The notes under the pieces were generated by a model. It did not search any database. It saw only the letters and a program-made list of their open reading frames with translations, and had not been told where the DNA came from. From Thermoanaerobaculia bacterium (lineage in GTDB: Bacteria; Acidobacteriota; Thermoanaerobaculia; UBA5066): a stretch of 64,000 nt of DNA. Where the stretch lies: assembly GCA_038245905.1 (NCBI GenBank), contig JBBRRY010000018.1:1-64000 (forward strand). The letters run 5' to 3'. The first letter of the stretch is position 1. Each line of letters begins with the position of its first letter. A program made the translations under genes and the position numbers. Positions 4,330 to 60,389 of the stretch are shown here, piece after piece.

Positions 4330-4406
4330 CTGTCCTGCTTCCTGTCTTCGGCGCGTCGCGCCCCCGCGGTCTTCAAACTAGAATGCCTCCCGAGGTCCGC
4401 GACATC

Positions 4407-4769
4407 ATGAAGATCATCCTGCGCATTCTCATCAATGCCGCCGCTCTCTGGGCCGCGGCTTCGTTCGTGCCCGGCATTCGCGCGGGCGGGCTCGGCTCTA
4501 TCCTGGCGCTCGCGCTCGTCTTCGGCCTGGTGAACGCCTTCGTGCGTCCTTTCCTGAAGCTCGTGAGCTGCCCCATCATACTGCTCACGCTGGGTTTGTT
4601 CACGCTCGTCGTGAACGCCTTGATGCTCATGCTGGCGGCCTGGCTGGGGCGCGGGCTCGGCATCGAATTCACGGTCGACGGATTCGTGCCGGCGTTCCTC
4701 GGGGCACTCCTCATTTCGGTCGTGTCGACGCTCCTCTCCTGGATTCTGATCGCAAGGACCGACGGCTAA
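4407..4769 (+). CDS. YvlD/DUF360 'phage holin family' 4-TM membrane protein
   Basis: GLVNAFVRPFLKLVSCPIILLTLGLFTLVVNA signature. Start ATG 4407. Confidence 0.85.
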   Translation: MKIILRILINAAALWAAASFVPGIRAGGLGSILALALVFGLVNAFVRPFLKLVSCPIILLTLGLFTLVVNALMLMLAAWLGRGLGIEFTVDGFVPAFLGALLISVVSTLLSWILIARTDG

Positions 4770-4874
4770 GGCCCGAACCGGGCCGGAACGGACCCCGGAC
4801 CGCCCGCGACGAAGTAGTTCAAATGGGGGATGGACGTGCCCCCGGGTTGCCGGATGCTCAGGCTGGAGGAAGCC

Positions 4875-6512
4875 GTGTTCGGCATCCCGTTCCATCGGCA
4901 TCTGGGTTTCAAGCTGACGGGCGCCGCGGCGATGGTCTCGCTCGCGACGATTTCGCTGTTCGCGTTCTTCTCGATCCGCTCCCAGCGGGATCATTCCATC
5001 GGCGAGGTCATCCGAGGTGCCGCGCTGTTCTCGAGCACGATCGCGAGCAGCACGCGGGATTTCATGCTCGAGGATCAGCGGCACGACGCCTACCGGATCA
5101 TGGAGAGCATCGGCCGCCTCGAGGGCATCGAGAAGGTCCGCGTCCTGAACAAGGAAGGCCGCATCACGTTCTCGACGAATGCGCGCGACATCGGCGCGTC
5201 GGTCGACAAGGATGCCGAGGCCTGCACGGCGTGCCACGCGGCGGGCCAGCCGATCGTGGCGCCCACGACGTCCGCGCGCAGCCGCCTGTTCCGTTCGAAC
5301 GGCCACCGCGTGCTGGGCATGGTGACGCCCATCTACAACGAGCCGGCCTGCTCGACGGCCGCCTGCCACGCCCACCCGTCCGACAAGCACGTCCTCGGCG
5401 TTGTCGACATCGGCATTTCGCTGAAGGAGATCGACGCGAGCCTGCGCACCCAGTCCCTGCGCCTGGCGGGCGGCGCGCTCGCCGCGGTGGTCGTCCTCGC
5501 CGCGCTCATGAGAGCCGCTGCGCGCCGCATCGTCTTCCGCCCCGTGGCGGAGCTCCTGGAGGCCACGCAGCGCGTCGGTCACGGCGACCTGTCGGCGACG
5601 CTCGCCGTTCGCTCGACGGACGAGCTCGGAATGCTGGCCACCTCGTTCAACGAGATGAACGCGTCGCTCGCCCGAACGCACCGCGACCTCGAGATCCTCA
5701 CCGACGATCTCGAACGTCAGGTGGAGGACCGCACGGCGGCGCTCCGAAGCGCGCACGAGGTCCTCGCGCGCAGTGAGAAGCTGGCCTCGCTCGGCCAGCT
5801 CTCGGCCTCCATCGCGCACGAGATCAACAATCCCCTCGCGGGGATCCTCACGTTTGCTCGCCTCATGACGCGGATGCTCGAGACCGGCCTGCCGGACGAC
5901 GCGACGCGCGCGGCGTGCCTCAAGAACCTGGCGCTCATCCGGAGGGAGTCCGAGCGCTGCACCGTCATCGTCCGGAACCTCCTCGACTTCGCGCGGGTCA
6001 GGCCGCTGGAGCTGAAAGTGTTCGACCCGCTGCTCGCGCTCGAAGAGGCGCTCTCACTCGCGGCGCACAAGATGCAGATCCAGAACATCACGGTCGTGAA
6101 GAAGCTCGAGGGAACGGGTGCCGTGAATGCCGACTTCGGGCAGCTTCGGCAGGCGTTCATGAACATCCTCCTGAACGCGTGCGACGCGATGCCGGGCGGC
6201 GGTACGCTGACGCTCACCTCCCACTTCTTCTCCGGCAGTCGCGAGGTCGAGATCGGTGTCGGCGACACGGGCGCGGGAATGGCGCCCGAGCTCCTCTCGC
6301 GGATTTTCGACCCGTTCTTCACGACGAAAGAGAAGGGTACCGGGCTTGGGCTCTCCGTCGTCTACGGCATCGTCGAGAAGCACGGCGGCTCCATGCGGGT
6401 CGCGAGCGGCGTCGGGAAGGGCACGACGATGACGATCCGGCTCCCTCTCGCCGCCGAGGGCGGCGGGGCCCCGGCGCCTTCCGCGGTGGCCAGGCCGGCC
6501 GCGGCCCCGTGA
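4875..6512 (+). CDS. Sensor histidine kinase with periplasmic heme-c sensor domain, HAMP, HisKA, HATPase
   Basis: TM - periplasmic CTACH and CSTAACH - TM - HAMP (DELGMLATSFN); H-box AHEINNPL; DPFFTTKEKGTGLGL. GGAGG lies 5 nt before GTG 4875. Confidence 0.9.
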   Translation: MFGIPFHRHLGFKLTGAAAMVSLATISLFAFFSIRSQRDHSIGEVIRGAALFSSTIASSTRDFMLEDQRHDAYRIMESIGRLEGIEKVRVLNKEGRITFSTNARDIGASVDKDAEACTACHAAGQPIVAPTTSARSRLFRSNGHRVLGMVTPIYNEPACSTAACHAHPSDKHVLGVVDIGISLKEIDASLRTQSLRLAGGALAAVVVLAALMRAAARRIVFRPVAELLEATQRVGHGDLSATLAVRSTDELGMLATSFNEMNASLARTHRDLEILTDDLERQVEDRTAALRSAHEVLARSEKLASLGQLSASIAHEINNPLAGILTFARLMTRMLETGLPDDATRAACLKNLALIRRESERCTVIVRNLLDFARVRPLELKVFDPLLALEEALSLAAHKMQIQNITVVKKLEGTGAVNADFGQLRQAFMNILLNACDAMPGGGTLTLTSHFFSGSREVEIGVGDTGAGMAPELLSRIFDPFFTTKEKGTGLGLSVVYGIVEKHGGSMRVASGVGKGTTMTIRLPLAAEGGGAPAPSAVARPAAAP

Positions 6513-7093
6513 GCGAGGTCGCCCTGTGGTGGATCGGGACGGGAAACGTCGACCCGGAGCTTCTCGCGGGTGTGCGCGCTCACGTCGAGAGAGTCTTCCG
6601 GTTTCCCGTGCGCCTCGACGTTCCGGCGGGCCGGCCGGAGGAGGCGTTCGACGCCCAGCGGAAGCAGCACTCCTCCCATCGCATCCTCCTGTGGCTCGCG
6701 GCGAACCGGCCACGCGGCGCCGCACGCCTGATCGGCCTGACGGACGCGGACCTCTTCATCCCGGTCCTGACGTTCGTCTTCGGCGAGGCGCAGCTGAAGG
6801 GCCCTGTCGCCGTAGTGTCGACCGCGCGTCTCCTGGGCGCGGGACTTCCCGGCGAGGCGGCCCGCTTCCCGATCCGGTTCCGGACCGAAGTCATTCACGA
6901 GCTCGGGCACACGTTCGGGCTCCTTCACTGCCGCATTCCACGCTGCGCGATGGCGCGCTCGGCGAGCCTTCGGGACGTGGACGCCAAGCAGCCGGACCTC
7001 TGCGAGACGTGCCGGGCCCTGTTCCTCGAGAACGCCTTTGAGATCGGAGAAACCCATGAGCAAGAAGAACACGCGGATCCTGCTGGTCGATGA
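6509..7093 (+). CDS. Archaemetzincin-family zinc metallopeptidase (M54)
   Basis: HELGHTFGLLHC-x4-CAM...CETC and DADLFIPVLTFVFGEAQL. GTGA overlap with the kinase stop; no signal peptide. Confidence 0.88.
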   Translation: MSEVALWWIGTGNVDPELLAGVRAHVERVFRFPVRLDVPAGRPEEAFDAQRKQHSSHRILLWLAANRPRGAARLIGLTDADLFIPVLTFVFGEAQLKGPVAVVSTARLLGAGLPGEAARFPIRFRTEVIHELGHTFGLLHCRIPRCAMARSASLRDVDAKQPDLCETCRALFLENAFEIGETHEQEEHADPAGR

Positions 7094-8426
7094 CGAAGAG
7101 ATCGTGCGGGAGTCCCTCTCGGGCTGGCTCGAGAAGGACGGCTACACGATCGGCACGGCGCCGGACGGCCTCGCGGCCGTCCGGGCCGTGGAAGAGGGCC
7201 GGTGGTCGATTCTCCTCGTGGACCTGAAGATGCCGGGCATCGACGGCCTCGAAGTGCTGAGGCGCGTCAAGGAGAAGAGCCCCGACACCGCCGTCGTCGT
7301 CATGACGGCGTATGCCACCGTCGACACCGCAGTGAACGCCATGAAACTCGGGGCGTTCGACTACATCGTGAAGCCCTTCGACCCTGAGGAGGTCAGCCTC
7401 CTGGTCGAGAAGATCGTCGCGCAGCAGGCGCTCGTGAGGGAGAACGTGATTCTCCGGAAGGCGCTCAAACGCGAGTTCCGGTTCCACGACCTCGTCACGA
7501 AGTCATCGGCGATGCAGGGCACGCTCGAGCTCGCGCGGACCGCCGCGCGCAGCCCCTCGACGATCCTCGTCCTCGGCGAAAGCGGCACGGGCAAGGAGCT
7601 TCTCGCCCGCGCCATCCATGCCGAGAGCCCGCGCCACGACAGACCCTTCGTGGCGATGTCCTGCGCGTCCCTCACGGAGACCCTCCTCGAATCCGAGCTC
7701 TTCGGCTACGAAAAGGGCTCCTTCACGGGCGCGAACGCGCGCCGGGAAGGCAAGTTCGTAGCGGCGAACGGGGGCACCCTTTTTCTCGACGAGATCGGCG
7801 ATATCAGCCCGAAGCTGCAGCTCGACCTCCTGCGCGTCCTCGAAGAACGCCGTGTGACGCGCGTCGGCGGGACGGAATCGATGCCGGTGGACGTTCGCAT
7901 CATTGCCGCGACGAACCGGGATCTCCAGAAGGCCATCGCCGAGGGCCGCTTCCGGGAGGATCTCTTTTATCGGCTGAACGTCATCACGCTCACGCTCGCT
8001 CCGCTCAGGGGCCGCAAGGAGGACATCCCCCTTCTCGTCGACATCCTGCTCGAGCAGCTCGCCGTGGAGATGAAGAAGCCGGTCGAGGGCGTGTCGCCCG
8101 AGGGCATGGCGCTTCTGCTTGCCCACTCCTGGCCGGGCAACGTGCGCGAGCTCAGAAACGTCCTCGAGCGCGGCGTCGTCGTTTCGACGGGGCCGCTCCT
8201 TCTGCCGGCCGATCTGGGCCTCACGCTTCGCGGGGAGGAGGTGCCGTCGCATCCTGCCTCGCTCGCCGAGATCGAACGGCAGCACATCGCCGCGGTGCTC
8301 AGGAACACGGGGGGAAACGTCTCGCAGGCCGCGCGAATCCTCGACATCGACCGCGTGACCCTTTACAGCAAGATCCACAAGTTCGGGCTGAAGCGGGCGG
8401 ACGACGGCGTTTTCGAGCCCGCCTAA
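7056..8426 (+). CDS. Sigma54-dependent response regulator (REC-AAA+-Fis HTH, NtrC/AtoC family)
   Basis: LVDD / DLKMP receiver; GESGTGKE; ESELFGYEKGSFTGA; LFLDEIG; WPGNVRELRN; C-terminal HTH. Confidence 0.95.
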   Translation: MSKKNTRILLVDDEEIVRESLSGWLEKDGYTIGTAPDGLAAVRAVEEGRWSILLVDLKMPGIDGLEVLRRVKEKSPDTAVVVMTAYATVDTAVNAMKLGAFDYIVKPFDPEEVSLLVEKIVAQQALVRENVILRKALKREFRFHDLVTKSSAMQGTLELARTAARSPSTILVLGESGTGKELLARAIHAESPRHDRPFVAMSCASLTETLLESELFGYEKGSFTGANARREGKFVAANGGTLFLDEIGDISPKLQLDLLRVLEERRVTRVGGTESMPVDVRIIAATNRDLQKAIAEGRFREDLFYRLNVITLTLAPLRGRKEDIPLLVDILLEQLAVEMKKPVEGVSPEGMALLLAHSWPGNVRELRNVLERGVVVSTGPLLLPADLGLTLRGEEVPSHPASLAEIERQHIAAVLRNTGGNVSQAARILDIDRVTLYSKIHKFGLKRADDGVFEPA

Positions 8427-8555
8427 GGAGCGGTGAGAAAGACAACGCCCCGTTGAGGACCTGAACGCTTCCGGCCGCAGGGCCGCCGGACTGGAATCGC
8501 CCCAAACCTCCTGTCGACAAGCAATTGACACCTCGCAAGGCGAACCGTAGGAGCG

Positions 8556-8570
8556 TGGCGCGGGCATTGC
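8556..8570 (+). promoter_or_regulatory. Sigma54 -24/-12 promoter of the Fe-S/NrfD/GcvH-like operon
   Basis: TGGCGCG-GGCA-TTGC with exact GG-N10-GC spacing, directly downstream of a sigma54 activator gene. Confidence 0.85.
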
Positions 8571-8588
8571 GATGAGACCGATGTTGCC

Positions 8589-8828
8589 ATGAAAGAGACA
8601 TCGACCACCTGCCCGCTCCTCAAAGAAGTCGTGATGCTTTATTGCGACGCCTGCCCGACGAAAAAGATGCTGCCTCTTGACCACCTCGTGTCGGCCCGGC
8701 CCTGTCAGGCGAGCCAATACGAGGACTGCCCCCTGTATCAGGAGGCCGTGAAGAGGCTCGGGACAGGCGCTGCTTACACGGAGCCGCTCGCCCTGGCGGC
8801 GAATGGCTCCGGGAGGGAGGCCCCATGA
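8589..8828 (+). CDS. Small Cys-rich protein (79 aa), first gene of the sigma54 operon
   Basis: CPLL..YCDAC..KKMLP..PC..YEDCPLY (5 Cys); stop overlaps the next ATG (ATGA). Confidence 0.7.
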   Translation: MKETSTTCPLLKEVVMLYCDACPTKKMLPLDHLVSARPCQASQYEDCPLYQEAVKRLGTGAAYTEPLALAANGSGREAP

Positions 8829-8911
8829 TCGCCACGGTACCCCTCGTCCTTCTTTTCGTTCTTCTCCTCCTCCTCAACGAACGCGCGCTCTCGCGCGCGG
8901 CCCGGGCCTGA
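8825..8911 (+). CDS. 28-aa single-TM peptide MIATVPLVLLFVLLLLLNERALSRAARA (absent from the ORF track)
   Basis: GGAGGGAGG SD; ATGA overlap with the upstream stop; 16-residue hydrophobic run then a basic tail; ends 11 nt before the next gene. Confidence 0.65.
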   Translation: MIATVPLVLLFVLLLLLNERALSRAARA

Positions 8912-8922
8912 GAGAGGCCGCG

Positions 8923-9834
8923 ATGAAGCTGAATCGCCGGTCTTTGTTCAAGCTCGCCGCCGCCGCCGGAACCGCCGGAGTGGCCGGCGCGGCGGCGACG
9001 TCGCGGGCCTCGGTCCTGCCCGCCTCGAAGGACGCGCGGGGCGTCCTCGTCGATACGACGCGCTGCGTCGGCTGCCGCGCCTGCGAGGCCGCCTGCGCCG
9101 AGGCGAACGCGCTGCCAGGCCCCGAGAAACCCGGGGACGATTCCGTGTTTGCGTCGAAGCGCGCGACGAGCCCCACGGCCTACACGGTCGTCCAGAAGAG
9201 CGCCCTCAAGAGTTCGGCTGGCGACGACCGCTATGCCAAGACGCAGTGCATGCACTGCGTGACGCCCGCCTGCGCCTCGGGATGCGTCGTCAAGGCTCTC
9301 GAGAAAACGCCCGAGGGGCCGGTCGTGTACCACACGGACCGCTGTCTCGGATGCCGCTACTGCATGATCGTGTGCCCCTTCGGAGTTCCGAAGTACGAGT
9401 TTTCGAGCGCGACGCCGCTCGTGAAGAAGTGCACCTTCTGCGCCGAGCGCCAGAAGAAGGGCCTCTCGCCGGCCTGCACCGAGGTCTGCCCCTCGGGCGC
9501 GCTCCAGTTCGGCAAACGCGCCGACCTCCTCGAGGAGGCCAAGACGCGCATCTACACGAACCCCGACAAGTACGTCCACGAGATCTACGGAGAGAGCGAA
9601 GCCGGAGGCACGAGCTGGCTGTACATCTCCGACGTGCCGTTCGCGTCGCTGGCGCTCCCCGCCGGCATCGAGAAGAAATCGTATCCGGAGCTCGCCGACG
9701 GCGCGCTCTCGGCCGTGCCTTTCATCATCACGCTCTGGCCCCCGCTCCTGATGGGCATGTACACCTTCTCGAAGCGCCGCGACGAAGTGGCGGCGGCGGA
9801 AGGCACCGAAAGGCAGGAGGAAGGTCATGTCTGA
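8923..9834 (+). CDS. Tat-exported 4x[4Fe-4S] ferredoxin subunit, HybA/HmcB/NrfC-like, C-terminal TM anchor
   Basis: Tat signal MKLNRRSLFK; 16 Cys in four ferredoxin groups (CVGCRACEAAC, CMHCVTPACASGC, CLGCRYCMIVCP, CTFC..CTEVCP); C-terminal hydrophobic helix. Confidence 0.9.
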   Translation: MKLNRRSLFKLAAAAGTAGVAGAAATSRASVLPASKDARGVLVDTTRCVGCRACEAACAEANALPGPEKPGDDSVFASKRATSPTAYTVVQKSALKSSAGDDRYAKTQCMHCVTPACASGCVVKALEKTPEGPVVYHTDRCLGCRYCMIVCPFGVPKYEFSSATPLVKKCTFCAERQKKGLSPACTEVCPSGALQFGKRADLLEEAKTRIYTNPDKYVHEIYGESEAGGTSWLYISDVPFASLALPAGIEKKSYPELADGALSAVPFIITLWPPLLMGMYTFSKRRDEVAAAEGTERQEEGHV

Positions 9835-11056
9835 GCAGGCGCTGAAACCCGCGTTCCTCGGTGGCACCTGGATGAAGGAGAACGTCTTTCTCGGGATGTC
9901 CTTCCGGGCTTACGTGAAGAGTCTCTTGACTCCCTTCAACGCGATTGCCGCCGCGATCCTTCTCGCCGGAATCCCGACGATGATCTTCCGCTTCTGGAAA
10001 GGTCTCGGCGCGGTGACGAACCTGTCCCAGACGAACCCGTGGGGCATCTGGGTCGCCTTCGACGTCGTGTGCGGCGTCGCGCTCGCGGCGGGCGGCTACA
10101 CGGTCGCCTGCGCTGTCTACATCTTCGGCCAGAAGGCTTACCGGCCGATCCTGCGCCCTGCGATCCTGACCGGCTTCCTCGGTTACGCCCTCGTCCTGTT
10201 CGGGCTCATCGTGGACCTCGGCCAGCCGTGGCGCCTCCCCTATCAGTTCTTCCTGACGCCCGGCACCACGGCGGTCATGTACGAGGTCGGCTGGTGCGTC
10301 TTCCTGTACTTGATGGTCATCGGCCTCGAGTTCGCGCCCGCCTTGCTGGAATGGCTCGGCCTCGTGAAAGTGCGCCGCCTCCTCGGCTCGCTCACGATCG
10401 GCATCATCGTCCTAGGCGTCACCCTCTCGACGCTCCACCAGTCTTCCCTTGGTGCCTTCTTCCTGATGACGCCGGGCAAGCTCCACCCTCTCTGGTACTC
10501 GCCGTTCCTCCCGATCTTCTTCTTCGTCTCCTCGATCGCTGCCGGCATCGGCATGGTGATCGTCGAGAGCGCGCTCTCGCATCGCGCCTTCCACGACCGG
10601 CTCGACCCGGCGGCTCCGGTCGATCTCGACAAAATCACGCTCGGGCTCGCCAAGGGCGGCGCGGTGGTCCTCTTCGCGTACTTCTTCATCCGGCTGCAGG
10701 GCCTCGTCGCGAGCGGCCGCTTCGACCTCCTCGCGACCGGTTGGGGAGCCTGGTACCTCCTCGAGATCCTCGGCTTCATCCTCCTGCCGTCGCTCCTCTT
10801 CGCCTTCGCGGCGCGGCGTCAGAGCGCGCGGTTGGCCCGGGTCGCCGGGCTCCTCACGGTCCTCGGTGTCGTCCTGAACCGCTTCAACGTCTCGCTCATC
10901 GCCTTCAACTGGAACGTCCCGGACCGCTACGTCCCGAGCGCGGGCGAGGTCATCACGTCGCTCACGATCGTGACGATCGGCGTCCTCGTCTTCCGCTGGA
11001 TCGTGGACCGCATGCCGGTCGTGCACGAGCACCCCGACTGGCGCGGCGCGCACTGA
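9827..11056 (+). CDS. NrfD/PsrC-family integral membrane subunit (HybB/HmcC-like)
   Basis: TNLSQTNPWGIWVAFDVVCGVALAAGG, DLGQPWRL, LSTLHQSSLG, KLHPLWYSP; about 10 TM helices. Confidence 0.9.
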   Translation: MSEQALKPAFLGGTWMKENVFLGMSFRAYVKSLLTPFNAIAAAILLAGIPTMIFRFWKGLGAVTNLSQTNPWGIWVAFDVVCGVALAAGGYTVACAVYIFGQKAYRPILRPAILTGFLGYALVLFGLIVDLGQPWRLPYQFFLTPGTTAVMYEVGWCVFLYLMVIGLEFAPALLEWLGLVKVRRLLGSLTIGIIVLGVTLSTLHQSSLGAFFLMTPGKLHPLWYSPFLPIFFFVSSIAAGIGMVIVESALSHRAFHDRLDPAAPVDLDKITLGLAKGGAVVLFAYFFIRLQGLVASGRFDLLATGWGAWYLLEILGFILLPSLLFAFAARRQSARLARVAGLLTVLGVVLNRFNVSLIAFNWNVPDRYVPSAGEVITSLTIVTIGVLVFRWIVDRMPVVHEHPDWRGAH

Positions 11057-11074
11057 GAAGGGAAAGAAACAGCC

Positions 11075-11740
11075 ATGAACGAACACAGCCTCCTCAGCCC
11101 CTATACCGCGAAGGCCCTCGAATACGGTCTCGCGATCTCCTATCTCGTCCTCTTCGTTCCCTTCTGGCGCTTCGTCCAGGGCGAGACGCCCGCCCACGCC
11201 TTCGGCTTTGGCTGGTTCCAGGTTCCGAACGGGGTCCACCTGCACGCCGGTCACGCCTGGGCGCGGCCCGAGGGCGGCACGGTGGAAGTCGGCCTCGACG
11301 ACTTCGCGCACAAGCTCTTGGGCCCCATGGACCAGATCTTCCTGCCTCCGATCGGAGCGCCGGTGCGGCAGGGACAGAAGGCGTTTTCCCTCATGGCCGG
11401 AGGCCAGGAGCTCGACGTGCTCTCGCCGGTCGACGGCCACGTCGTCGCGGTGAACGAGACGGCCCGCGCGCATCCCGGCGATGCGCTCCGCGACCCATAC
11501 GGCGCGGGTTGGCTCATGAAGGTCGAACCCCGCTGGCTGACCGGCAACCTCAAGAACCTCTTCACAGGCGAGGGAGCCCGCCGTTTCCTCGACGCCGCGG
11601 CCGGGAAGCTCGCCCAGCGCCTGACGCCTCAGCTCGGGGTGGTTCTGCAGGACGGCGGCACTCCGGTCCACGGCATCGCCCGGGCCCTCGACCCGGATCA
11701 CTGGGACGAGCTGGCCCGCCGGTTCCTGGGCGGAAAGTGA
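11075..11740 (+). CDS. Membrane-anchored GcvH-fold protein lacking the lipoyl lysine (copy 1)
   Basis: HAWA..VEVGLDDFA..SPVDGHVVAVN..DPYGAGWLMKV H-protein pattern; the ESVK hairpin is replaced by MAGG; N-terminal TM helix. Confidence 0.85.
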   Translation: MNEHSLLSPYTAKALEYGLAISYLVLFVPFWRFVQGETPAHAFGFGWFQVPNGVHLHAGHAWARPEGGTVEVGLDDFAHKLLGPMDQIFLPPIGAPVRQGQKAFSLMAGGQELDVLSPVDGHVVAVNETARAHPGDALRDPYGAGWLMKVEPRWLTGNLKNLFTGEGARRFLDAAAGKLAQRLTPQLGVVLQDGGTPVHGIARALDPDHWDELARRFLGGK

Positions 11741-11750
11741 GCCTCACGTC

Positions 11751-12101
11751 ATGAGACACGTCCGTCTGTCGGCCATTCTCCTGACGCTCGGGCTCACCGT
11801 CACGGTTCTCGGGGGCGGCCTCCCCCGCCTTCCGAAGGACCGCACTCTCCCTCAGGGAGACGGCAGCCCAGGCGTCGTGACCTTCCGCCACGCGAGCCAC
11901 GTCGACGGCACGAAGCCAGACTGCACGACGTGCCATCCGGCGCTCTTTTCGATCCTGCCTCCGTCCTCGACGCGCGCGGCCCTCGCGCTCAAACACGCCG
12001 ACATGGAAAAGGGTGCGGCGTGCGGGAAATGCCACGACGGCAAGAGCGCCCACGGATTCGAGGACTGCGCGACCTGTCACGCGGTACCGAAAGAAAGGTG
12101 A
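11751..12101 (+). CDS. Periplasmic triheme c7-type cytochrome
   Basis: Signal peptide; VTFRHASH; three CxxCH motifs (CTTCH, CGKCH, CATCH). Confidence 0.9.
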   Translation: MRHVRLSAILLTLGLTVTVLGGGLPRLPKDRTLPQGDGSPGVVTFRHASHVDGTKPDCTTCHPALFSILPPSSTRAALALKHADMEKGAACGKCHDGKSAHGFEDCATCHAVPKER

Positions 12102-12106
12102 GCATC

Positions 12107-12820
12107 ATGGAAGCCCTCCTCGCGCTGCTTACGGGAGTCGCCATCTTCGTGGTCGGCCTCCTGGCCCGGCTTCTCTTCCTCGTCGCCTTCGTCGCGGTCG
12201 CCATCGTGCCGGTCCTTGCGGCATGGGGGCTCTATTACGCGGCGGAAAAAACCCTCCTGTGGCTGAAGGCCCGCCGCCTCGGACTCGTGGAAGTCGAGGG
12301 GCTCCTTCTGGCTGAGAACCGGCGCTACGCACCCGCGCACACATGGCTCGACGAAGAGCACGGCGGCCGCCTGCGAGTAGGCCTCGACGATCTCGCCGGA
12401 CACCTCGTGCATGGCGTCACGGCCGTCACCTTGCCGCAGCCTGGCAGCACGATCGCCGCCGGCCGTCCCGCCGTGACGATCGCCTGCGGTGCCCGCACCG
12501 CCGTCATTGCGGCTCCGGTGACCGGGACGATCGTCGCCGTGAACGCGCGCGTCGGGAATCACCCGACGCTCCTCCGTTTGTCCCCGTACGAGAAGGGGTG
12601 GCTGTTCACGGTGCGTCCGGCGTCGGACGCCTATCGCAGCTTCCCGATCGGTCTCGAGGCACGAGCGTGGTTCCGCGGCGAGGAGGCGCGTCTCTCGCGC
12701 TTTTTCGAAGGCGAGCTCGGGCTTGCCGCTGCGGACGGCGGCGAGCTCATTCTGCCGCCGTCGGTTCTCCTGTCCGAGGAAAAGTGGCGACAGGCCGTTT
12801 CGTCTTTCCTCGAGGCCTGA
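12107..12820 (+). CDS. Membrane-anchored GcvH-fold protein lacking the lipoyl lysine (copy 2)
   Basis: Long N-terminal hydrophobic segment; HTWL..LRVGLDDLA..APVTGTIVAVN..SPYEKGWLF; hairpin ACGA in place of ESVK. Alternative start GTG 12098. Confidence 0.85.
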   Translation: MEALLALLTGVAIFVVGLLARLLFLVAFVAVAIVPVLAAWGLYYAAEKTLLWLKARRLGLVEVEGLLLAENRRYAPAHTWLDEEHGGRLRVGLDDLAGHLVHGVTAVTLPQPGSTIAAGRPAVTIACGARTAVIAAPVTGTIVAVNARVGNHPTLLRLSPYEKGWLFTVRPASDAYRSFPIGLEARAWFRGEEARLSRFFEGELGLAAADGGELILPPSVLLSEEKWRQAVSSFLEA

Positions 12821-12849
12821 GCCCCGGCTGTCCGCCGCACGGAACCCCG

Positions 12850-12877
12850 AAGGCCGCCCTCCTGGGCGGCCTTTTTT
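12850..12877 (+). terminator. Intrinsic terminator closing the sigma54 operon
   Basis: AAGGCCGCCC-TCCT-GGGCGGCCTT followed by a T run. Confidence 0.9.
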
Positions 12878-12923
12878 CCGTCTTTCTGTCAAAATCGGCG
12901 GTTCGAAAGAAGGAGACTCACCC

Positions 12924-29880: not shown

Positions 29881-29953
29881 GGGTCCGTAGCTCAGCGGTC
29901 AGAGCCACCGGCTCATAACCGGCGGGTCCCTGGTTCGAATCCAGGCGGACCCA
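29881..29953 (+). tRNA. tRNA with CAT anticodon, most likely tRNA-Ile2 (lysidine); CCA not fully encoded
   Basis: Acceptor GGGTCCG/CGGACCC, discriminator A, anticodon arm CCGG-CTCATAA-CCGG, T loop GGTTCGAATCC. The paired G1-C72 excludes fMet. Confidence 0.9.
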
Positions 29954-31304: not shown

Positions 31305-31979
31305 ATGACTCGTGGCGAAGAGATTGCCGCACGCCTCGCCGACGTGACGGGGCGGATTGCCGCGGCTGCCGTACGTTCCGGACGTAAGCCCGAAGACGTC
31401 CTCCTCGTCGTGGTGGGGAAGACGCATCCGGTCGAGGACCTTCTTGCGGCCTACGCCGGCGGAGCTCGCGCCTTCGGCGAGAACCGCGTCCAGGAAGCCG
31501 AGGAGAAGTTTCCGGGGCTGCCGCCCGATGCCTCGGGTCATCTCATCGGCCCCCTCCAGTCGAACAAGGTGAACCGTGCCGTGAAGGCGGCCGCGGTGAT
31601 CCAGACGATCGATTCCGAGGACCTGGCGCGGCGCCTCGACTGCGCCGCGGCGGCCTTAGGGAAGCGCCTCGATGTGTTCGTCCAGGTGCGCCTCGGCGGG
31701 GAGGCCACGAAGTCGGGCATCGAGCCGCCCGGCGCCGCCGCACTCGTCGAGGCCGTGCGCGCGCTCCCCGCGCTCGACCTCAGGGGACTCATGACGATTC
31801 CTCCCCCCGGAAACACGCGTCCGCACTTTGCGGAGCTGCGTGAGCTCGGGAAACGTCTCGGCGTTTCCGGGCTCTCGATGGGGATGAGCGACGATTTCGA
31901 GACGGCCGTCGAAGAGGGCGCGACGCTCGTGCGGGTGGGCTCGGCGATCTTCGGAGAGAGAACGAGAGAGACTTCCTAG
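31305..31979 (+). CDS. yggS: PLP homeostasis protein YggS
   Basis: FGENRVQE, HLIGPLQSNKV, GLMTIPP, LSMGMSDDFE, VRVGSAIFG. Confidence 0.95.
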   Translation: MTRGEEIAARLADVTGRIAAAAVRSGRKPEDVLLVVVGKTHPVEDLLAAYAGGARAFGENRVQEAEEKFPGLPPDASGHLIGPLQSNKVNRAVKAAAVIQTIDSEDLARRLDCAAAALGKRLDVFVQVRLGGEATKSGIEPPGAAALVEAVRALPALDLRGLMTIPPPGNTRPHFAELRELGKRLGVSGLSMGMSDDFETAVEEGATLVRVGSAIFGERTRETS

Positions 31980-52849: not shown

Positions 52850-54211
52850 TCAGGAGGACCGGGCAGGCAGCGCCAGCGGCGAAACGGCAGGAGCGGCCGA
52901 ACGGGCGCCACGCGGCCGGAGCGTCGCGACGAGGACGTGGGCCCAGAGGAGGAGCCCGGCCGTCGCGAAGATTCCGGTGGTCCCGACGAGGCGGTACAGG
53001 GGCAATCCGCCAAGGCCCAGCGCGACGGGGATCTGCAGCGCGCGGAGGACCGCCGCCGCGCAAACGAGCGCGAGCGCGAATTGCGCTTCCCGTGGACGCG
53101 CGAGAGCGCGGCCGGTGAAGGCGGGGACGAGGCGCAGGCTCATCGCGAGGATGAGCAGCGTCAGGAACCCGATCGTATAGACGTGGCGCGCGCCGTCCCA
53201 GATGAACTTGTGGACGGAGGCGCCGGACAGCTCTCCGAGACAGGCGGAAACCGAGAGCGCTGCGAAGAGGCCCAGAAAGGCGAACGGCGTGCGGAGCGCG
53301 AGCAACCCGCGAGATCCGGGAGGGCCGGCGTTCAGCGCGAGAATCCGGCTCGCCGAGAGGAACAGGAAGATCGCCCCCGCGAGGAGGAGCGTCCCGGCGA
53401 GCGTCAGCGCACGCGAGGTGGCGGCCGCCGGACCCGGAATCCACGCGGCGCCGAGAAGGAGAACGCCAACTCCCTGCAGCATCGCGACGGCCCGGGCGCT
53501 GCGGGCTGAAGGGCGAGGCAGTCCGAGGAACGCCGGAACCATTCGCGACGCGAACCCGAACACCCACGAGAGGACGAATCCGTAGGCGGCGATCGCGTAG
53601 AACGGCTCGAGGAGGGCGGCGGGAATCTCGGACTCGACGTGGCCGGCGAGGAACGCGGCCTGCGCCGCGGACAGAGCTGCGGCTGCCACGGCCCAGGCGG
53701 TTCCGAGGAGAATGTGCAGAGAGAGCGGATCGGCAGTGGCGCCGCGCCGCGTGAGTACCGGAAACGCCCAGCCCGTGAACGCGAAGACTCCGGCCAGCTC
53801 CAGCGCTCCCGAGAGCAGGGAGAGAAAGCGGCCGATCGCCCAGGGTGCCAGCGGCTGTCCGATCGCGCGCAAGAGGGCGCCGCCTCCGACGCCGATGAGC
53901 ACCGCGAGGAGCACCTCGCGGGACGGAGGTGCGGCCCCGAAGATGCGCGGGATGGCCTGGAGCGCGACCCCGAGGATGAAAAGACCGGCGAAGCCGACGA
54001 GCTGGACGTGCGCGTGGACCTGAAGATGCGACGGTAGAACGGTCCCGGTCGCGAACGCCATGCGCCAGATCGCCCAACCACCCATCGACACGCCGAGCGT
54101 CACGGCGAGCGTCAGCGCCGTGAAGACGAAGCTCGGAAAGAGGTTTCGGGGCGCCGGGGAGTTTCCGGGGGCGCAGGCGCTGCAACAGGGGACGGTCGGG
54201 GAGTGGGCCAT
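52850..54211 (-). CDS. NnrS-like polytopic membrane protein
   Basis: About 12 TM helices; HAHVQLVGF, ARHVYTIGF, RMVPAF/RLVPAF repeats; adjacent to a Crp/Fnr regulator. Confidence 0.65.
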   Translation of the reverse strand: MAHSPTVPCCSACAPGNSPAPRNLFPSFVFTALTLAVTLGVSMGGWAIWRMAFATGTVLPSHLQVHAHVQLVGFAGLFILGVALQAIPRIFGAAPPSREVLLAVLIGVGGGALLRAIGQPLAPWAIGRFLSLLSGALELAGVFAFTGWAFPVLTRRGATADPLSLHILLGTAWAVAAAALSAAQAAFLAGHVESEIPAALLEPFYAIAAYGFVLSWVFGFASRMVPAFLGLPRPSARSARAVAMLQGVGVLLLGAAWIPGPAAATSRALTLAGTLLLAGAIFLFLSASRILALNAGPPGSRGLLALRTPFAFLGLFAALSVSACLGELSGASVHKFIWDGARHVYTIGFLTLLILAMSLRLVPAFTGRALARPREAQFALALVCAAAVLRALQIPVALGLGGLPLYRLVGTTGIFATAGLLLWAHVLVATLRPRGARSAAPAVSPLALPARSS

Positions 54212-54255
54212 GAGTGCTCCGAATGAAAGGTAACCCTCCGCCGGCCCCGTCCTAT

Positions 54256-54269
54256 ATGACCGCCGTCAT
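54256..54269. promoter_or_regulatory. Crp/Fnr-type palindromic operator
   Basis: Perfect palindrome ATGAC-CGCC-GTCAT (TGA-N6-TCA core) between divergent genes. Confidence 0.7.
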
Positions 54270-54323
54270 CCTGCGATGAAGTCTCACGGCGGACGCCCGC
54301 CCGTTCGTGGTTAACATCCACGG

Positions 54324-55658
54324 ATGAAACCTGGCGGGCCCGCCAACGAGGCGCTTTACCGCGGGCTTTTCGAGGCTGCGGCGGACGCGATGCTCGTCGT
54401 CGACGCGGCCGGCGAAATCGTTCTCGTGAACGCGGCGGGCGCGGCCCTCCTCGGCGCGGCTCCGGAGTCGCTGACCGGCCAGCACATCGACGCCTTCGTG
54501 CCGGCTCGTTTCCGCGACCACGGAAAGCAGCGTGCGGACTACGGCGCCCGGCCTAAGGCACGTCGGATGGGAAGCAGCCTCGACCTCCTCCTCCGCCGCG
54601 CGGACGGGCGCGAGGTCGCAGTGGACATCTCGCTCACCCCGGTGACGGTCGCCGGACAGATGCTGGTGGCCTGTGCGATCCGTGACCTGAGCGGACGACC
54701 GGAAGTCTCCGAGAGCCTTCGCGTGCAGGCGACCGCGCTCCGGTCCGCCGCCAACGGCATCGTCATCACGGACCGCGCGGGTACGATTACATGGGTCAAC
54801 CCCGCCGCCTGCGCGATCACGGGGTATGCGTCCGACGAGCTCATCGGCCAGCACACCCGCATCCTGAAGTCGGGCCGCCACGGCAGCACCTTCTACGCGG
54901 ATCTCTGGAAGACCGTCCTCCGCGGCGACACGTGGTCCGGGACGATCGTGAACCGCCGCAAGGACGGATCCGAGTACCACGAGGAGCAGACGATCGCTCC
55001 GGTCGTCGACGAGGCCGGCGGAATCACGCACTTCATCGCGATCAAGCAGGACGTCACCGAGCAACGCCGCGTCCAGGAGGCGCTCGCGCGCGCGAACGAG
55101 GCGCTCGCGGCGCAGGTCATGAAAATCGAAGTCCTGAACGGAAGGCTTCGCGAACAGGCTGTCCGCGATCCGCTCACCTCCCTCCACAACCGGCGCTACC
55201 TCGACGAAACGATCAATCGCGACATGGCGCGCGTGAGCCGCGGGGGCCTGCCGCTCGCGGTGGCGGCGCTCGACCTCGACCGCTTCAAGGAGATCAACGA
55301 CACCCATGGCCACGCGGCCGGCGACCAGGTGCTCCGCCGGATGGCGGACGTCCTCCGGCTGCACGTGCGCGCCTCGGATCTCGTGTGCCGATCCGGCGGC
55401 GAGGAATTTGTCGTCGTGATGCCGGGCGCCACGCTTCCCGCAGCCCTCGCGAGCGCCGGGAGGTGGCGGGTTACGTTTGCGAGCGAGCTCATCTCCGTGC
55501 GCGAGGGCGTCTCCGTCTCATGCACCGTATCGATCGGCGTCGCACTTCACCACAGCCGGAAGGAGACGTTCGACGCCTGCCTCGAACGCGCGGACGCGGC
55601 GCTCTACGCGGCCAAGCGCTTCGGCCGCGACCGCGTCGTCAGCGCGGAGGTCGAATAG
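54324..55658 (+). CDS. PAS-PAS-GGDEF diguanylate cyclase
   Basis: Two PAS domains; DPLT..NRR, DLDRFK, RASD I-site, SGGEEF. Confidence 0.93.
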   Translation: MKPGGPANEALYRGLFEAAADAMLVVDAAGEIVLVNAAGAALLGAAPESLTGQHIDAFVPARFRDHGKQRADYGARPKARRMGSSLDLLLRRADGREVAVDISLTPVTVAGQMLVACAIRDLSGRPEVSESLRVQATALRSAANGIVITDRAGTITWVNPAACAITGYASDELIGQHTRILKSGRHGSTFYADLWKTVLRGDTWSGTIVNRRKDGSEYHEEQTIAPVVDEAGGITHFIAIKQDVTEQRRVQEALARANEALAAQVMKIEVLNGRLREQAVRDPLTSLHNRRYLDETINRDMARVSRGGLPLAVAALDLDRFKEINDTHGHAAGDQVLRRMADVLRLHVRASDLVCRSGGEEFVVVMPGATLPAALASAGRWRVTFASELISVREGVSVSCTVSIGVALHHSRKETFDACLERADAALYAAKRFGRDRVVSAEVE

Positions 55659-55777
55659 CGAGGGGCGCCCCATCGAAAGAGCAGCACTGGCGGCGAGAAG
55701 GAAGCGCGGACGGATCTGGTTCATGGGACCTCCGTTCGGTCTGGCGCCGGCACTCTACCGCATGGGTTCTCCTTAGC

Positions 55778-55797
55778 GTATATGTCTGATATATACT
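55778..55797 (+). promoter_or_regulatory. brnTA -10 element with overlapping inverted-repeat operator
   Basis: GTATAT-7 nt-ATATAC overlapping TATACT (55792-55797). Confidence 0.65.
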
Positions 55798-55803
55798 CAG
55801 TTG

Positions 55804-56112
55804 GTGACAGGCTCCGATCCCCTGGAGGACTGTACCGGGTTTGATTGGGACGATGGAAGTGTCGAGAAGAGCTGGATCCGCCACCGTGTCGCATTCTGGG
55901 AGGCCGAAGAGGTCTTTTTCAACGAGCCTCTCGTCGTCGCGACCGACCGGTCGCATGCCGCCGGGGAGCCGCGCTATTTCTCGCTCGGTCGATCTGATTC
56001 CGGGCGCAGGCTCTTCCTGTGTTTCACCGTCAGGCGTTTCCTGATTCGCATCATTTCGGCTCGCGACATGACGCGCAGAGAGGCTTCGACATATGAGCAT
56101 TCAAAAGCGTAA
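55804..56112 (+). CDS. BrnT-family toxin
   Basis: GFDWD..KSWIRH.V.F.EAEEVF..EPRY..IRIISARDM. Confidence 0.9.
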   Translation: MTGSDPLEDCTGFDWDDGSVEKSWIRHRVAFWEAEEVFFNEPLVVATDRSHAAGEPRYFSLGRSDSGRRLFLCFTVRRFLIRIISARDMTRREASTYEHSKA

Positions 56113-56383
56113 GCAGATCCCCTCGTTCGCTTCCGAAGAAGCGGAACGCATCTTCTGGGCCTCTCACGACTCGACCCAGTATGTCGACTGGGCAAAGGCC
56201 CGTCGTCCGTTCTTCCCGGCCCTCCGGCCCACGCTTCGGACGATCTCGCTGCGACTGCCCGAATCGATGATCGGGCAGCTCAAGGTCCTTGCGAACAAGC
56301 GCGATGTGCCCTATCAGTCGCTTCTGAAACAGTTCCTCGCCGAGCGGCTGCAACGGGAGATCACCAAAGCCTCCAGCGGCTGA
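56093..56383 (+). CDS. BrnA/CopG-like antitoxin
   Basis: IPSFASEEAERIFWASHDS..TISLRLP..KRDVPYQSLLK; overlaps the toxin stop. Confidence 0.9.
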   Translation: MSIQKRKQIPSFASEEAERIFWASHDSTQYVDWAKARRPFFPALRPTLRTISLRLPESMIGQLKVLANKRDVPYQSLLKQFLAERLQREITKASSG

Positions 56384-56405
56384 GAGACCTTGCCCTCGAC
56401 CTTCA

Positions 56406-56507
56406 GCCGCGCACTGGGGCTACATGGCGACCGGCGTCGACAGCGACGCGACATTGAAAGCGAACAGCGAAGGCTTCGCGAACCTCGCGCTTCGCGTGCG
56501 CCGGCTC
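56406..56507 (+). pseudogene. Relic fragment of an FMN-dependent alpha-hydroxy-acid oxidase
   Basis: Translates AAHWGYMATGVDSDATLKANSEGFANLALRVRRL, resembling the family N-terminus; the rest of the gene is absent. Confidence 0.6.
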
Positions 56508-56588
56508 TCCGGTGCGCACGCGGCAGTCGTCTTCATGAATTCCTCCAGGGGCTTCCGATGGCTGAGACCTTGCTCTCGCGCAAGTAGC

Positions 56589-57218
56589 TCAGAGCTCCCT
56601 GACGATCGCCTTCCTCTTCTCCTGATACTCGGCTTCCGAGAGCACGCCGGTCTTGAAGAGGCGCTCGGCCTCCTTCAGGCGCGCCTCGACGGATGCTCCG
56701 CCGGCCGCGGACGGCGCCGCGGACGCCCCGAGGCCGTCGTTCCCGCCGCGCGGCCGTCCGGACGTGAACAGCACGTTGCGGAATTTCTCCGGGTGGAGGA
56801 TGCGCGGGAAGACGACGGTGCTGTCGCTCCCGGCCGTCTGGATCTCCACGTCTCCGTAGGACAGCCAGCGCCCGCCCAGCGTCGAATGCACGTTCACGTC
56901 CTGGATCTTCTCCAGCGGGATCTGCCTCACGGACCTCTCGAGGACGCCTGTCTTACGGATCACGCGGAACGACGTCACCGCGAACTCGTCGAAGGAGTCC
57001 GCGAGCCATCGCCACGCCATCGCCGCGAGCCCGAGGACGACGAGGATGCCGCCTGCGGCCAGAGGGATGACGTTCCCGGGATCCAAGGCCTGACCCGCGG
57101 CGGCGGCGACAACTCCGAAGACGGCTACCGCGGCCGCGGGCACGAACCGAACCCAGTGATAGCGGGGCTGGAGCAGCACCTCTTCGCCCGGCATGAGGTT
57201 CTTCTCGACGTACGACAT
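56589..57218 (-). CDS. Membrane protein with bacterial PH domain and SHOCT domain
   Basis: MSYVEKNLMPGEEV; 2 TM; VTSFRVIRKTG..IPLEKIQDV..YGDVEIQTAG; GVLSEAEYQEKRK. Confidence 0.85.
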   Translation of the reverse strand: MSYVEKNLMPGEEVLLQPRYHWVRFVPAAAVAVFGVVAAAAGQALDPGNVIPLAAGGILVVLGLAAMAWRWLADSFDEFAVTSFRVIRKTGVLERSVRQIPLEKIQDVNVHSTLGGRWLSYGDVEIQTAGSDSTVVFPRILHPEKFRNVLFTSGRPRGGNDGLGASAAPSAAGGASVEARLKEAERLFKTGVLSEAEYQEKRKAIVREL

Positions 57219-57246
57219 CTACAGCCCCTTCACGGCGGAAAAGAGA

Positions 57247-60378: not shown

Positions 60379-60389
60379 GGGGAGCCCGC

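Follow-up and report, generated by a model that had tools for sequence, protein, structure and literature searches.

The subject of this work is a gene cluster on a 64,000-nucleotide stretch of DNA (positions 1 to 64,000 of contig JBBRRY010000018.1, assembly GCA_038245905.1, here called the window) from a Thermoanaerobaculia bacterium of the phylum Acidobacteriota. The cluster (positions 4830 to 12880, + strand, ca. 68% G+C) has eleven co-directional features and forms two operons, namely, a regulatory triad of sensor kinase, archaemetzincin, and sigma54 activator and the sigma54 operon that it would induce. The second operon codes for an iron-sulfur protein and a membrane subunit similar to HmcB and HmcC, a triheme cytochrome c7, and a group of proteins that we refer to as the cassette, that is, a small protein with four conserved cysteines (Cys4 protein), a one-helix membrane peptide, and two proteins with the fold of GcvH, the H-protein of glycine cleavage (GcvH1 and GcvH2). 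The cluster is real, widely conserved, and uncharacterized, and it belongs to soil and sediment anaerobes. Its electron-transfer half adds a new member to a known type; what is new is the lipoate-free H-fold/Cys4 cassette together with the control by a heme-bearing kinase and an archaemetzincin. We tentatively read the induced operon, with a probability of roughly 0.45, as an inducible quinone-to-cytochrome-c7 module of the Nhc/Cbc type that would carry a nonlipoylated Cys4/GcvH cassette on its cytoplasmic side. All the elements listed by a previous reading of this DNA made from the letters alone (the sequence-only reading) were found on one strand, and the kinase gene, which that reading had started at position 4875, begins at 4830.

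The HmcB/HmcC-like core and its cytochrome

Among curated families, HmcB and HmcC of the Desulfovibrio Hmc complex gave the best scores for the two core subunits, followed by HybA and HybB, respectively. By the NCBI thresholds, the pair is not an HmcBC orthologue, and the cut-offs of the HybA and HybB families were likewise not reached (Table 1). The HmcB-like protein has a twin-arginine translocation (Tat) signal, 16 cysteines arranged in four 4-Cys cluster motifs, and a C-terminal membrane anchor, and it is 33% identical to HybA of Escherichia coli. The HmcC-like protein is 32% identical to E. coli HybB, and its hydropathy profile shows ten peaks, with a lysine/arginine (K/R) bias that would place both termini in the cytoplasm. 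Seven residues of HybB are named as functional in the accessible part of a review (PMC8076601). Six of them (R89, Y99, D109, E148, H184, and R329) correspond to identical residues in the window protein (R110, Y120, D130, E168, H204, and R352, respectively), all invariant in 30 sequences. With ten predicted helices and six of the seven quinone-site and proton-path residues, as far as these are described there, the protein falls within the NrfD family, in its HybB/NhcC type. Judged by these features, HmcC looks functional, and the core pair looks like a working redox dimer of the NrfC/NrfD type, within the Hmc/Nhc/HybAB branch. A PDB sequence search with HmcC returned no chain at an E value of 0.001.

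The family scores of the cytochrome (Table 1) and its CXXCH motifs at residues 58, 91, and 106 place it in the c7 family. The presence of c7, HmcB-like, and HmcC-like genes in one operon amounts to the component set of the enzyme-free cytochrome c:FeS:NrfD complexes. The host genome contains 17 open reading frames (ORFs) with at least three CXXCH motifs, nine of them with 8 to 11, so that a periplasmic cytochrome pool exists for c7. On host contig C12, there are six ORFs with 5 to 11 CXXCH motifs (four at ca. 53500 to 61000, the others at 1692 and 15504), possibly an electron-export set.

Besides HmcB and HmcC, the Hmc complex comprises the 16-heme cytochrome HmcA, the cytochrome b HmcE, and the HdrD-like CCG protein HmcF. 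None of these three is present in the window operon (8589 to 12820), which has the triheme c7 and the GcvH-like proteins instead. The anchor of E. coli hydrogenase-2, HybA/HybB, is alike in Tat signal, cluster motifs, and tail anchor, but no NiFe hydrogenase was found in the host genome. Going by the descriptions available, the likeness to Nhc and to Cbc3/Cbc4 (CbcVWX, CbcSTU) lies in a small multiheme cytochrome c, a 4x[4Fe-4S] protein, and a membrane subunit, free of any enzyme. NhcABCD appears among the NrfD complexes, and NhcC among the NrfD subunits with ten helices, in the accessible part of PMC8076601. Along similar lines, Cbc4 of Geobacter is described, in what is available of its source, as a cytochrome c, a 4x[4Fe-4S] protein, and an integral membrane subunit forming a putative quinone-cytochrome c oxidoreductase of undefined role (10.1101/2025.04.14.648717). 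The window system differs from these complexes in that its cytochrome is a triheme c7, not a NapC-type tetraheme or a nine-heme cytochrome, and in that the Cys4/GcvH-like cassette, the peptide, and the archaemetzincin go unmentioned in those descriptions, as far as they are accessible.

The sequence-only reading had pointed out that no catalytic subunit is encoded between promoter and terminator, and this was true in the window and in every related locus examined. No hydrogenase, molybdoenzyme, or NrfA gene was found in the cluster or in those loci (two phyla and three gene orders). The same reading had set the cluster against HybA/HybB, NrfC/NrfD, and HmcB/HmcC pairs, which normally link the quinone pool to such an enzyme or to a large multiheme cytochrome, but the missing subunit is no anomaly. 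The absence is real but not strange, because enzyme-free cytochrome c/FeS/NrfD complexes are known, with Nhc and Cbc4 as precedents in the partial accounts cited above, and because the operon has in its own c7 a natural periplasmic partner.

Table 1. Features of the cluster, with window coordinates and the matches or patterns on which each assignment is based
Feature	Position	Strand	Basis
Sensor histidine kinase	4830..6512	+	HAMP, HisKA, HATPase_c (Pfam)
Archaemetzincin-type zinc metalloprotease	6509..7093	+	NF033823 147.8 bits (cut-off 145); Peptidase_M54
NtrC-type sigma54-dependent response regulator (receiver, AAA+, HTH_8)	7056..8426	+	Sigma54_activat 236.2 bits; Response_reg 108.7 bits; HTH_8 51.3 bits
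Predicted sigma54 -24/-12 promoter, TGGC-N7-TTGC	8556..8570	+	Pattern match
79-amino-acid Cys4 protein (Cys79), predicted cytoplasmic	8589..8828	+	No Pfam/NCBIfam match
28-amino-acid single-helix membrane mini-protein	8825..8911	+	Hydrophobic ORF
HmcB/HybA-type iron-sulfur subunit	8923..9834	+	NF045715 353.1 bits (cut-off 420); HybA NF008134 244.7 bits (cut-off 263)
HmcC/HybB-type NrfD-family quinone-interacting membrane subunit	9827..11056	+	Pfam NrfD (PF03916) 71.5 bits (gathering 25.8); NF045714 514.6 bits (cut-off 550)
GcvH-like protein 1 (GcvH1)	11075..11740	+	GCV_H 64.2 bits
Periplasmic triheme c7-type cytochrome, signal peptide	11751..12101	+	TIGR04257 61.9 bits (cut-off 40); Cytochrome_C7 47.8 bits
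GcvH-like protein 2 (GcvH2)	12107..12820	+	GCV_H 69.1 bits
Intrinsic terminator, 11-bp GC-rich stem, then U run	~12849..12880	+	Fold of 12825-12890

The GcvH-like proteins, the Cys4 protein, and their fusions

GcvH1 has an N-terminal membrane helix, a GcvH barrel, and a C-terminal extension with a QDGG motif; in GcvH2, the N-terminal hydrophobic helix is long and has Arg21 as an invariant residue, and the extension has an invariant AADGG motif. A C-terminal extension of ca. 60 residues with an invariant DGG motif is common to both families. The AlphaFold2 model of GcvH2 (48 sequences; predicted local distance difference test [pLDDT] score of 93.9) predicts a helix at residues 2 to 58, the barrel at residues 60 to 171, and a helical C-terminal extension. 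Foldseek searches with this model returned solely H-proteins, with a best target-normalized template modeling score (TM-score) of 0.90 (3a8i_E) and root mean square deviations of 1.2 to 2.2 Å among the closest chains, and an ESM Atlas search gave nothing beyond unnamed or GCV_H clusters. The H-protein motifs HxW, VGxDD, LP, PxxG..N, and PY..GW are retained in the GcvH-like proteins. Their scores for the equivalog TIGR00527 were about half of the cut-off of 115.85 (57.5 and 58.1 bits).

The lipoyl-lysine column was set by alignment with the host's own normal GcvH, which is kept separately on contig C11 (hairpin ESVKA). In GcvH1, this column holds glycine in 59 of 70 sequences and lysine in none (0/70). 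In GcvH2, it is alanine in the window and A, G, K, D, E, or R across the family, with lysine in 12 of 81 sequences, and the next column is arginine in 73 of 81. Given that the hairpin column is mostly devoid of lysine, lipoylation cannot be the conserved function. The sequence-only reading had called the two proteins lysine-less, which is right for the lipoylation hairpin and wrong for the rest of the chains (seven lysines in GcvH1 and four in GcvH2). The K/R bias around the membrane helices pointed to cytoplasmic GcvH domains in 33 of 40 GcvH1 and 48 of 48 GcvH2 sequences, and by the positive-inside rule the domains are predicted to be cytoplasmic. Complex prediction of HmcC with GcvH1 and GcvH2 gave a median of 0.40 against 0.32 for the control, a result that weighs neither for nor against binding.

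With GcvH, the window proteins share the fold, and they differ from it by the missing hairpin lysine, the membrane anchors, and the DGG extension. The barrel-sandwich hybrid of RnfC, itself a subunit of a membrane redox complex, is a lipoyl-like barrel that serves without lipoate; the window proteins had no significant match to RnfC_N in the Pfam scan. GcvH-like LbpA proteins work with Hdr-like complexes in sHdr sulfur oxidation, according to the accessible part of PMC6067878, and LbpA needs its lipoylated lysine, by what is available of another source (10.64898/2026.10.01.755906). Within the limits of these accounts, the likeness is that GcvH-like proteins occur outside glycine cleavage beside redox complexes, and one related locus (L172, see below) adjoins HdrCBA. 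The differences are that the window proteins have no hairpin lysine and that the window cluster has no Hdr genes.

Cys79 conserves cysteines 8, 19, 39, and 47 and has 103 unnamed relatives; a PDB sequence search with it gave chance-level matches only. Between the Cys gene and hmcB, a hydrophobic ORF of 22 to 44 amino acids (aa) was found in 37 of 38 related loci.

A GcvH2 profile search of 1.84 billion representatives yielded 464 clusters (50% identity) at an E value of 1e-30, and 23 longer matches were examined. Ten of these 23 carry the Cys4 domain fused N-terminally to a GcvH-like part that has the DGG extension, the four cysteines being invariant in 10 of 10, and two others have a different Cys-rich repeat. 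An earlier search for fused forms among proteins of 416 to 2000 residues had found none, which is weak evidence; the profile search gave fusions of 250 to 370 residues plus one of 1391. In P0324, a NuoI-like two-cluster ferredoxin domain stands in place of the Cys4 domain, joined to the GcvH-like domain. One of the ten, P0344 (363 aa), additionally has a response-regulator receiver fused to its Cys4 motif and its DGG-bearing GcvH-like domain. The longest, P0292 (1391 aa), has three GcvH domains without the hairpin lysine, an oxidase linked to flavin adenine dinucleotide (FAD), and an HdrD-like part with a two-cluster Fer4 and a pair of CCG domains, and it is also a weak match to Pfam RnfC_N.

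When metagenomes were scanned with the fusions, 347 loci were confirmed and 80 of these retained; 23 loci of at least 4 kb hold a fusion. Kinase, protease, or activator genes adjoin the fusion in 19 of the 23 and HmcB plus HmcC accompany it in 13, while four loci end before HmcBC could be judged. One of the six loci without HmcBC (L172:2090-8459) has archaemetzincin, activator, and Cys4::GcvH-like fusion genes followed on the same strand by HdrC-, HdrB (CCG)-, HdrA-, and MvhD/FlpD-like genes, the sole Hdr neighborhood among the 23.

Conservation, control genes, and boundaries of the locus

Of the 18 other genomes in the genus of the window, 17 have the adjacent GcvH1-GcvH2 pair, and the one without it is 53% complete; beyond the genus, the pair was found in 1 of 12 other genomes of the order. 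A scan of species representatives gave 135 confirmed GcvH2 relatives, of which 80 were retained and searched with the window proteins; per-feature counts take only loci with enough flank. The retained relatives were all metagenome-assembled genomes (MAGs), labeled as Acidobacteriota (Thermoanaerobaculia, Holophagales, and Vicinamibacterales), Anaeromyxobacteraceae, “delta proteobacterium,” or, in one case, “uncultured bacterium.” GcvH1 lies directly 5' of GcvH2 in 65 of 71 loci, and HmcB plus HmcC are near GcvH2 in 45 of 61. The c7 gene is present in 44 of 48 HmcC loci, Cys79 in 43 of 45 HmcBC loci, and the complete set of kinase, protease, and activator in 39 of 42. All nine larger genes are retained in 34 of 56 loci (Acidobacteriota and Anaeromyxobacteraceae MAGs). 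The neighborhood check proposed by the sequence-only reading thus showed that the gene combination is conserved elsewhere, reordered in distant loci. In L021:7155-8548, a close relative (proteins 85 to 96% identical), there is no c7 gene between the two GcvH-like genes.

The distant loci came from a sample of 301 Acidobacteriota genomes, 84 of which matched the GcvH2 profile at 1e-25, with 59 matches being full length to the C-terminal extension (hand count); 12 distant loci were hand-picked from those 59. Seven of the 12 contain the GcvH-like gene(s), HmcB, HmcC, kinase, activator, and protease in another order, and an eighth ends after HmcC at a contig edge. Survival of the gene set through reshuffling is good evidence that these genes form a functional unit.

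The HmcB-like protein has no Tat signal in six of these eight reordered loci (L094, L097, L100, L103, L104, and L105). The signal-less proteins keep the C-terminal anchor and its trailing basic patch, and the K/R bias of HmcC is as in the Tat-bearing loci. An inverted membrane module, considered on the grounds of these proteins, was rejected, since the K/R loop bias of HmcC is identical in all.

Three soil RNA libraries of two studies contained contigs 85 to 99% identical to the operon (mostly 85 to 95%) that cover every gene and bridge the junctions. They hint only weakly at expression of the operon in relatives, as RNA contigs give no strand, ends, or level, do not demonstrate a single transcript, and could stem from DNA carry-over. 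Among sequencing runs, only the likely source sample contained most of the stretch; the share was at most 0.13 in all others, too little to name a habitat.

Concerning the regulatory triad, the kinase has two heme-c motifs (CXXCH at residue 132 and CX4CH at 174) in a predicted periplasmic domain between two hydrophobic segments, both motifs being retained in 34 of 34 orthologues. The GTG start of the archaemetzincin gene overlaps the kinase stop codon, and its end overlaps the start of the activator gene. The score of the protease for NF033823, its site HELGHTFGLLH (HExxHxxGxxH), and its four cysteines, with the site and cysteines conserved at 95% or more in 40 sequences, make it a member of the archaemetzincins. 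The activator has the GSFTGA loop, and a TTG at 7038 is an alternative start.

The promoter pattern TGGC-N7-TTGC has three matches in the window versus 0.89 expected by chance, and in 39 of 42 related loci a relaxed form (TGGY-N8-TGC) precedes the first gene by 16 to 66 nucleotides (nt). With a predicted -24/-12 element and an adjacent enhancer-binding protein, the downstream unit is, by its sequence features, a sigma54-dependent operon. The two other matches in the window are on the + strand at 31313-31327 and 56559-56573.

At the other end, the fold of the terminator region had a free energy of -34.5 kcal/mol (z score of -4.38), not equaled by any of 200 shuffles; the hairpin was found by folding that stretch and was not listed by a general terminator scan. 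Genes 3' of GcvH2 are common only within one lineage among the related loci, and hence the unit ends at the terminator. The flanking genes are unrelated: a 128-aa Phage_holin_4_2 membrane protein lies on the 5' side (4383-4769, same strand as the kinase) and a Ser/Thr kinase gene on the 3' side, on the opposite strand. The sole Rfam match in the window at the gathering score was a transfer RNA gene (29881-29953).

Proposed mechanism, alternatives, and significance

In the mechanism that we propose, the diheme-c kinase would sense the periplasmic redox state or a ligand and, presumably coupled in translation to archaemetzincin and activator, would fire the sigma54 promoter through the activator. 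The HmcB-like protein, seated on the ten-helix HmcC-like subunit, would exchange electrons between the menaquinone pool and c7, from which they could reach the multiheme cytochrome pool, and no further enzyme would be needed. On the cytoplasmic face, the Cys4 mini-protein, the one-helix peptide, and the two anchored GcvH-fold proteins, incapable of lipoylation, may dock on HmcC by their membrane helices. The cassette would act as a nonlipoate adaptor or regulator, for example, by gating a cytoplasmic half-channel or by reporting the state of the module, and not as a wire.

Several observations weigh against such a module. Both core subunits score under the NCBI equivalog cut-offs (353.1 versus 420 and 514.6 versus 550 bits), and Ser129 of HybB is replaced by alanine in the window HmcC, although serine is the family consensus. 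The AlphaFold2 model of the Cys4 protein is poor (pLDDT of 58.6), and its metal site is thus only a candidate. The cytochrome is absent from 4 of 48 HmcC loci (L021, L047, L067, and L079) and from seven of the eight reordered loci. HmcC itself is absent from 17 of 65 loci, mostly from Anaeromyxobacteraceae with peptide, GcvH1, and GcvH2 behind their own sigma54 site; 6 of the 23 fusion loci have at least 3 kb of downstream sequence and no HmcBC, and 4 of the 12 distant loci have a GcvH-like gene alone. Moreover, we infer the attachment of the cassette to HmcC and the direction of electron flow; the topology and the part played by the protease are likewise our reconstruction.

Twelve of the 17 HmcC-less loci have a sigma54 element 128 to 268 nt before GcvH1. 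In eleven of the 12 (Anaeromyxobacteraceae-type MAGs), a 22-aa peptide close to that of the window follows the element; in the twelfth, L032, the peptide has 38 aa. Two short contigs (L037 and L049) that belong to this stand-alone kind also carry the 22-aa peptide, which is found 5' of the stand-alone GcvH pair in 13 of 14 type-2 loci. In 11 closely related loci (L061:8148-10269 and ten kin), a rubrerythrin gene then follows the pair. One MAG has both a full locus (L046) and a short one (L055). Two stand-alone copies, L060 and L061, lie ca. 120 kb apart on one contig, and the short contig L032 (1-6876) holds kinase, protease, activator, Cys protein, peptide, and three GcvH-like genes, with no HmcBC.

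Because some loci keep them without HmcBC, the regulatory triad and the Cys4/GcvH-like cassette are the constant core of the system; HmcBC is a usual, nonobligatory companion, and c7 is a further add-on. The cassette is, for the same reason, not simply a subunit of the HmcBC module. The proposal of the sequence-only reading that GcvH-fold domains serve as the cytoplasmic interface of the complex agrees with their predicted location; their attachment is putative, and the cassette also occurs without HmcBC.

It is also conceivable, if unlikely, that the cassette is a self-standing effector of the triad, a cytoplasmic or membrane device for stress or signaling, with HmcBC-c7 as a co-regulated passenger not joined to it. 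The 12 loci in which the cassette stands alone with its own sigma54 site and peptide fit this idea, as do L123, L127, L144, and L147, where kinase, protease, activator, and fusion are the entire unit seen, L128 and L130, which have the same unit with the protease not detected, and the receiver-Cys4-GcvH fusion P0344. The 11 loci with rubrerythrin 3' of the pair count as about one event, since they are all close kin. However, HmcB and HmcC go with the cassette in most loci (45/61) and survive the change in gene order, and GcvH1 lies directly 3' of HmcC in type-1 and fusion loci. GcvH1 and GcvH2 are membrane anchored in precisely the HmcC-bearing loci, with soluble fusions elsewhere. Besides, the stand-alone pairs of Anaeromyxobacteraceae appear to be copies of the full locus: the peptide that they carry is near-identical to that of L046, and L046 shares a MAG with the short locus L055.

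Equally doubtful is a broader reading in which the Cys4 protein, the lipoate-free GcvH fold with its DGG motif, and the peptide would form a new cytoplasmic redox or signal module. This module would be derived from the H-protein, with the lipoyl arm swapped for a Cys4 metal or thiol center, and would plug into NrfD-type quinone modules in most lineages or into HdrABC in some, always under the triad of heme-c kinase, archaemetzincin, and sigma54 activator.

We give somewhat less credit still to a redox-active cassette in which the Cys4 part (iron-sulfur or thiol) and the GcvH fold would be a lipoate-free, DsrC/LbpA-like carrier of reducing equivalents, connecting a cytoplasmic partner with a membrane complex or one of the Hdr type. 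The four invariant cysteines of the ten fusions speak for it, together with the swap of Cys4 for a NuoI-like ferredoxin domain in P0324, the HdrC-, HdrB-, HdrA-, and MvhD-like genes after the fusion of L172, and the joining of lysine-less GcvH domains to an FAD oxidase and an HdrD-like Fer4+CCG part in P0292; LbpA, by the partial account available, offers a parallel in its work with Hdr-like complexes (PMC6067878). Nevertheless, the Hdr neighborhood is found in only 1 of 23 loci, the window operon has no CCG protein, and the two CCG-bearing frames of the host (on C58 and C13) are unlinked to the operon. HmcC lacks cofactor motifs, conserved histidines are absent from the cassette helices, and no trans-membrane electron path can be seen. 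Furthermore, only 52 of 81 GcvH2 sequences have the hairpin cysteine, GcvH1 is free of cysteine altogether, and the spacing in Cys4 is not ferredoxin-like.

The search of the host genome for orphan enzymes, which the sequence-only reading had proposed, found no NiFe hydrogenase large subunit (PF00374) in this genome, which is 96.4% complete, and eight molybdopterin-family matches. The genome has four NrfD genes including that of the window, and one of the others, on C43, adjoins a molybdoenzyme match. That HmcBC is an orphan anchor for an unlinked hydrogenase, molybdoenzyme, or NrfA, in an operon that merely looks self-contained, is highly improbable: HybA/HybB and NrfC/NrfD pairs serve such enzymes and the molybdopterin-family matches exist, but the hydrogenase is absent, one match has another NrfD gene beside it, none of the related loci examined has a catalytic gene, and the operon supplies its own cytochrome. 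A molybdopterin-family frame at C21:412-2103 (- strand) has two in-frame TGA codons and may be a selenocysteine enzyme or a broken gene.

The sequence-only reading knew of no functional description of this combination, and our search of full-text literature, which left subscription journals mostly and supplements wholly outside its scope, found no paper in which a GcvH-like protein or an archaemetzincin is linked to an NrfD, HybB, or Hmc module; omics tables for Anaeromyxobacter, Geothrix, or Geobacter could list the genes.

NrfD-type modules are a main link of anaerobes between the quinone pool and periplasmic redox chemistry, and the enzyme-free ones (Nhc and Cbc3/4) are poorly understood. 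In this cluster, an enzyme-free NrfD module comes with a sensor of its own and a defined set of accessory genes. It is also broadly distributed, as shown by the 464 clusters, the full-length members in 59 of 301 sampled Acidobacteriota genomes, and its presence in Anaeromyxobacteraceae as well. It clearly exemplifies an H-protein fold that is strongly conserved despite the loss of lipoylation, and bacterial archaemetzincins gain a testable context. If the cassette binds HmcC or is redox-active, the way in which electron export is controlled or coupled in metal-reducing soil bacteria becomes a testable question. Were the cassette the new cytoplasmic module considered above, a cytoplasmic process would be coupled through it to the state of the periplasmic cytochrome and quinone pools, in a manner for which no respiratory complex described so far offers a precedent.

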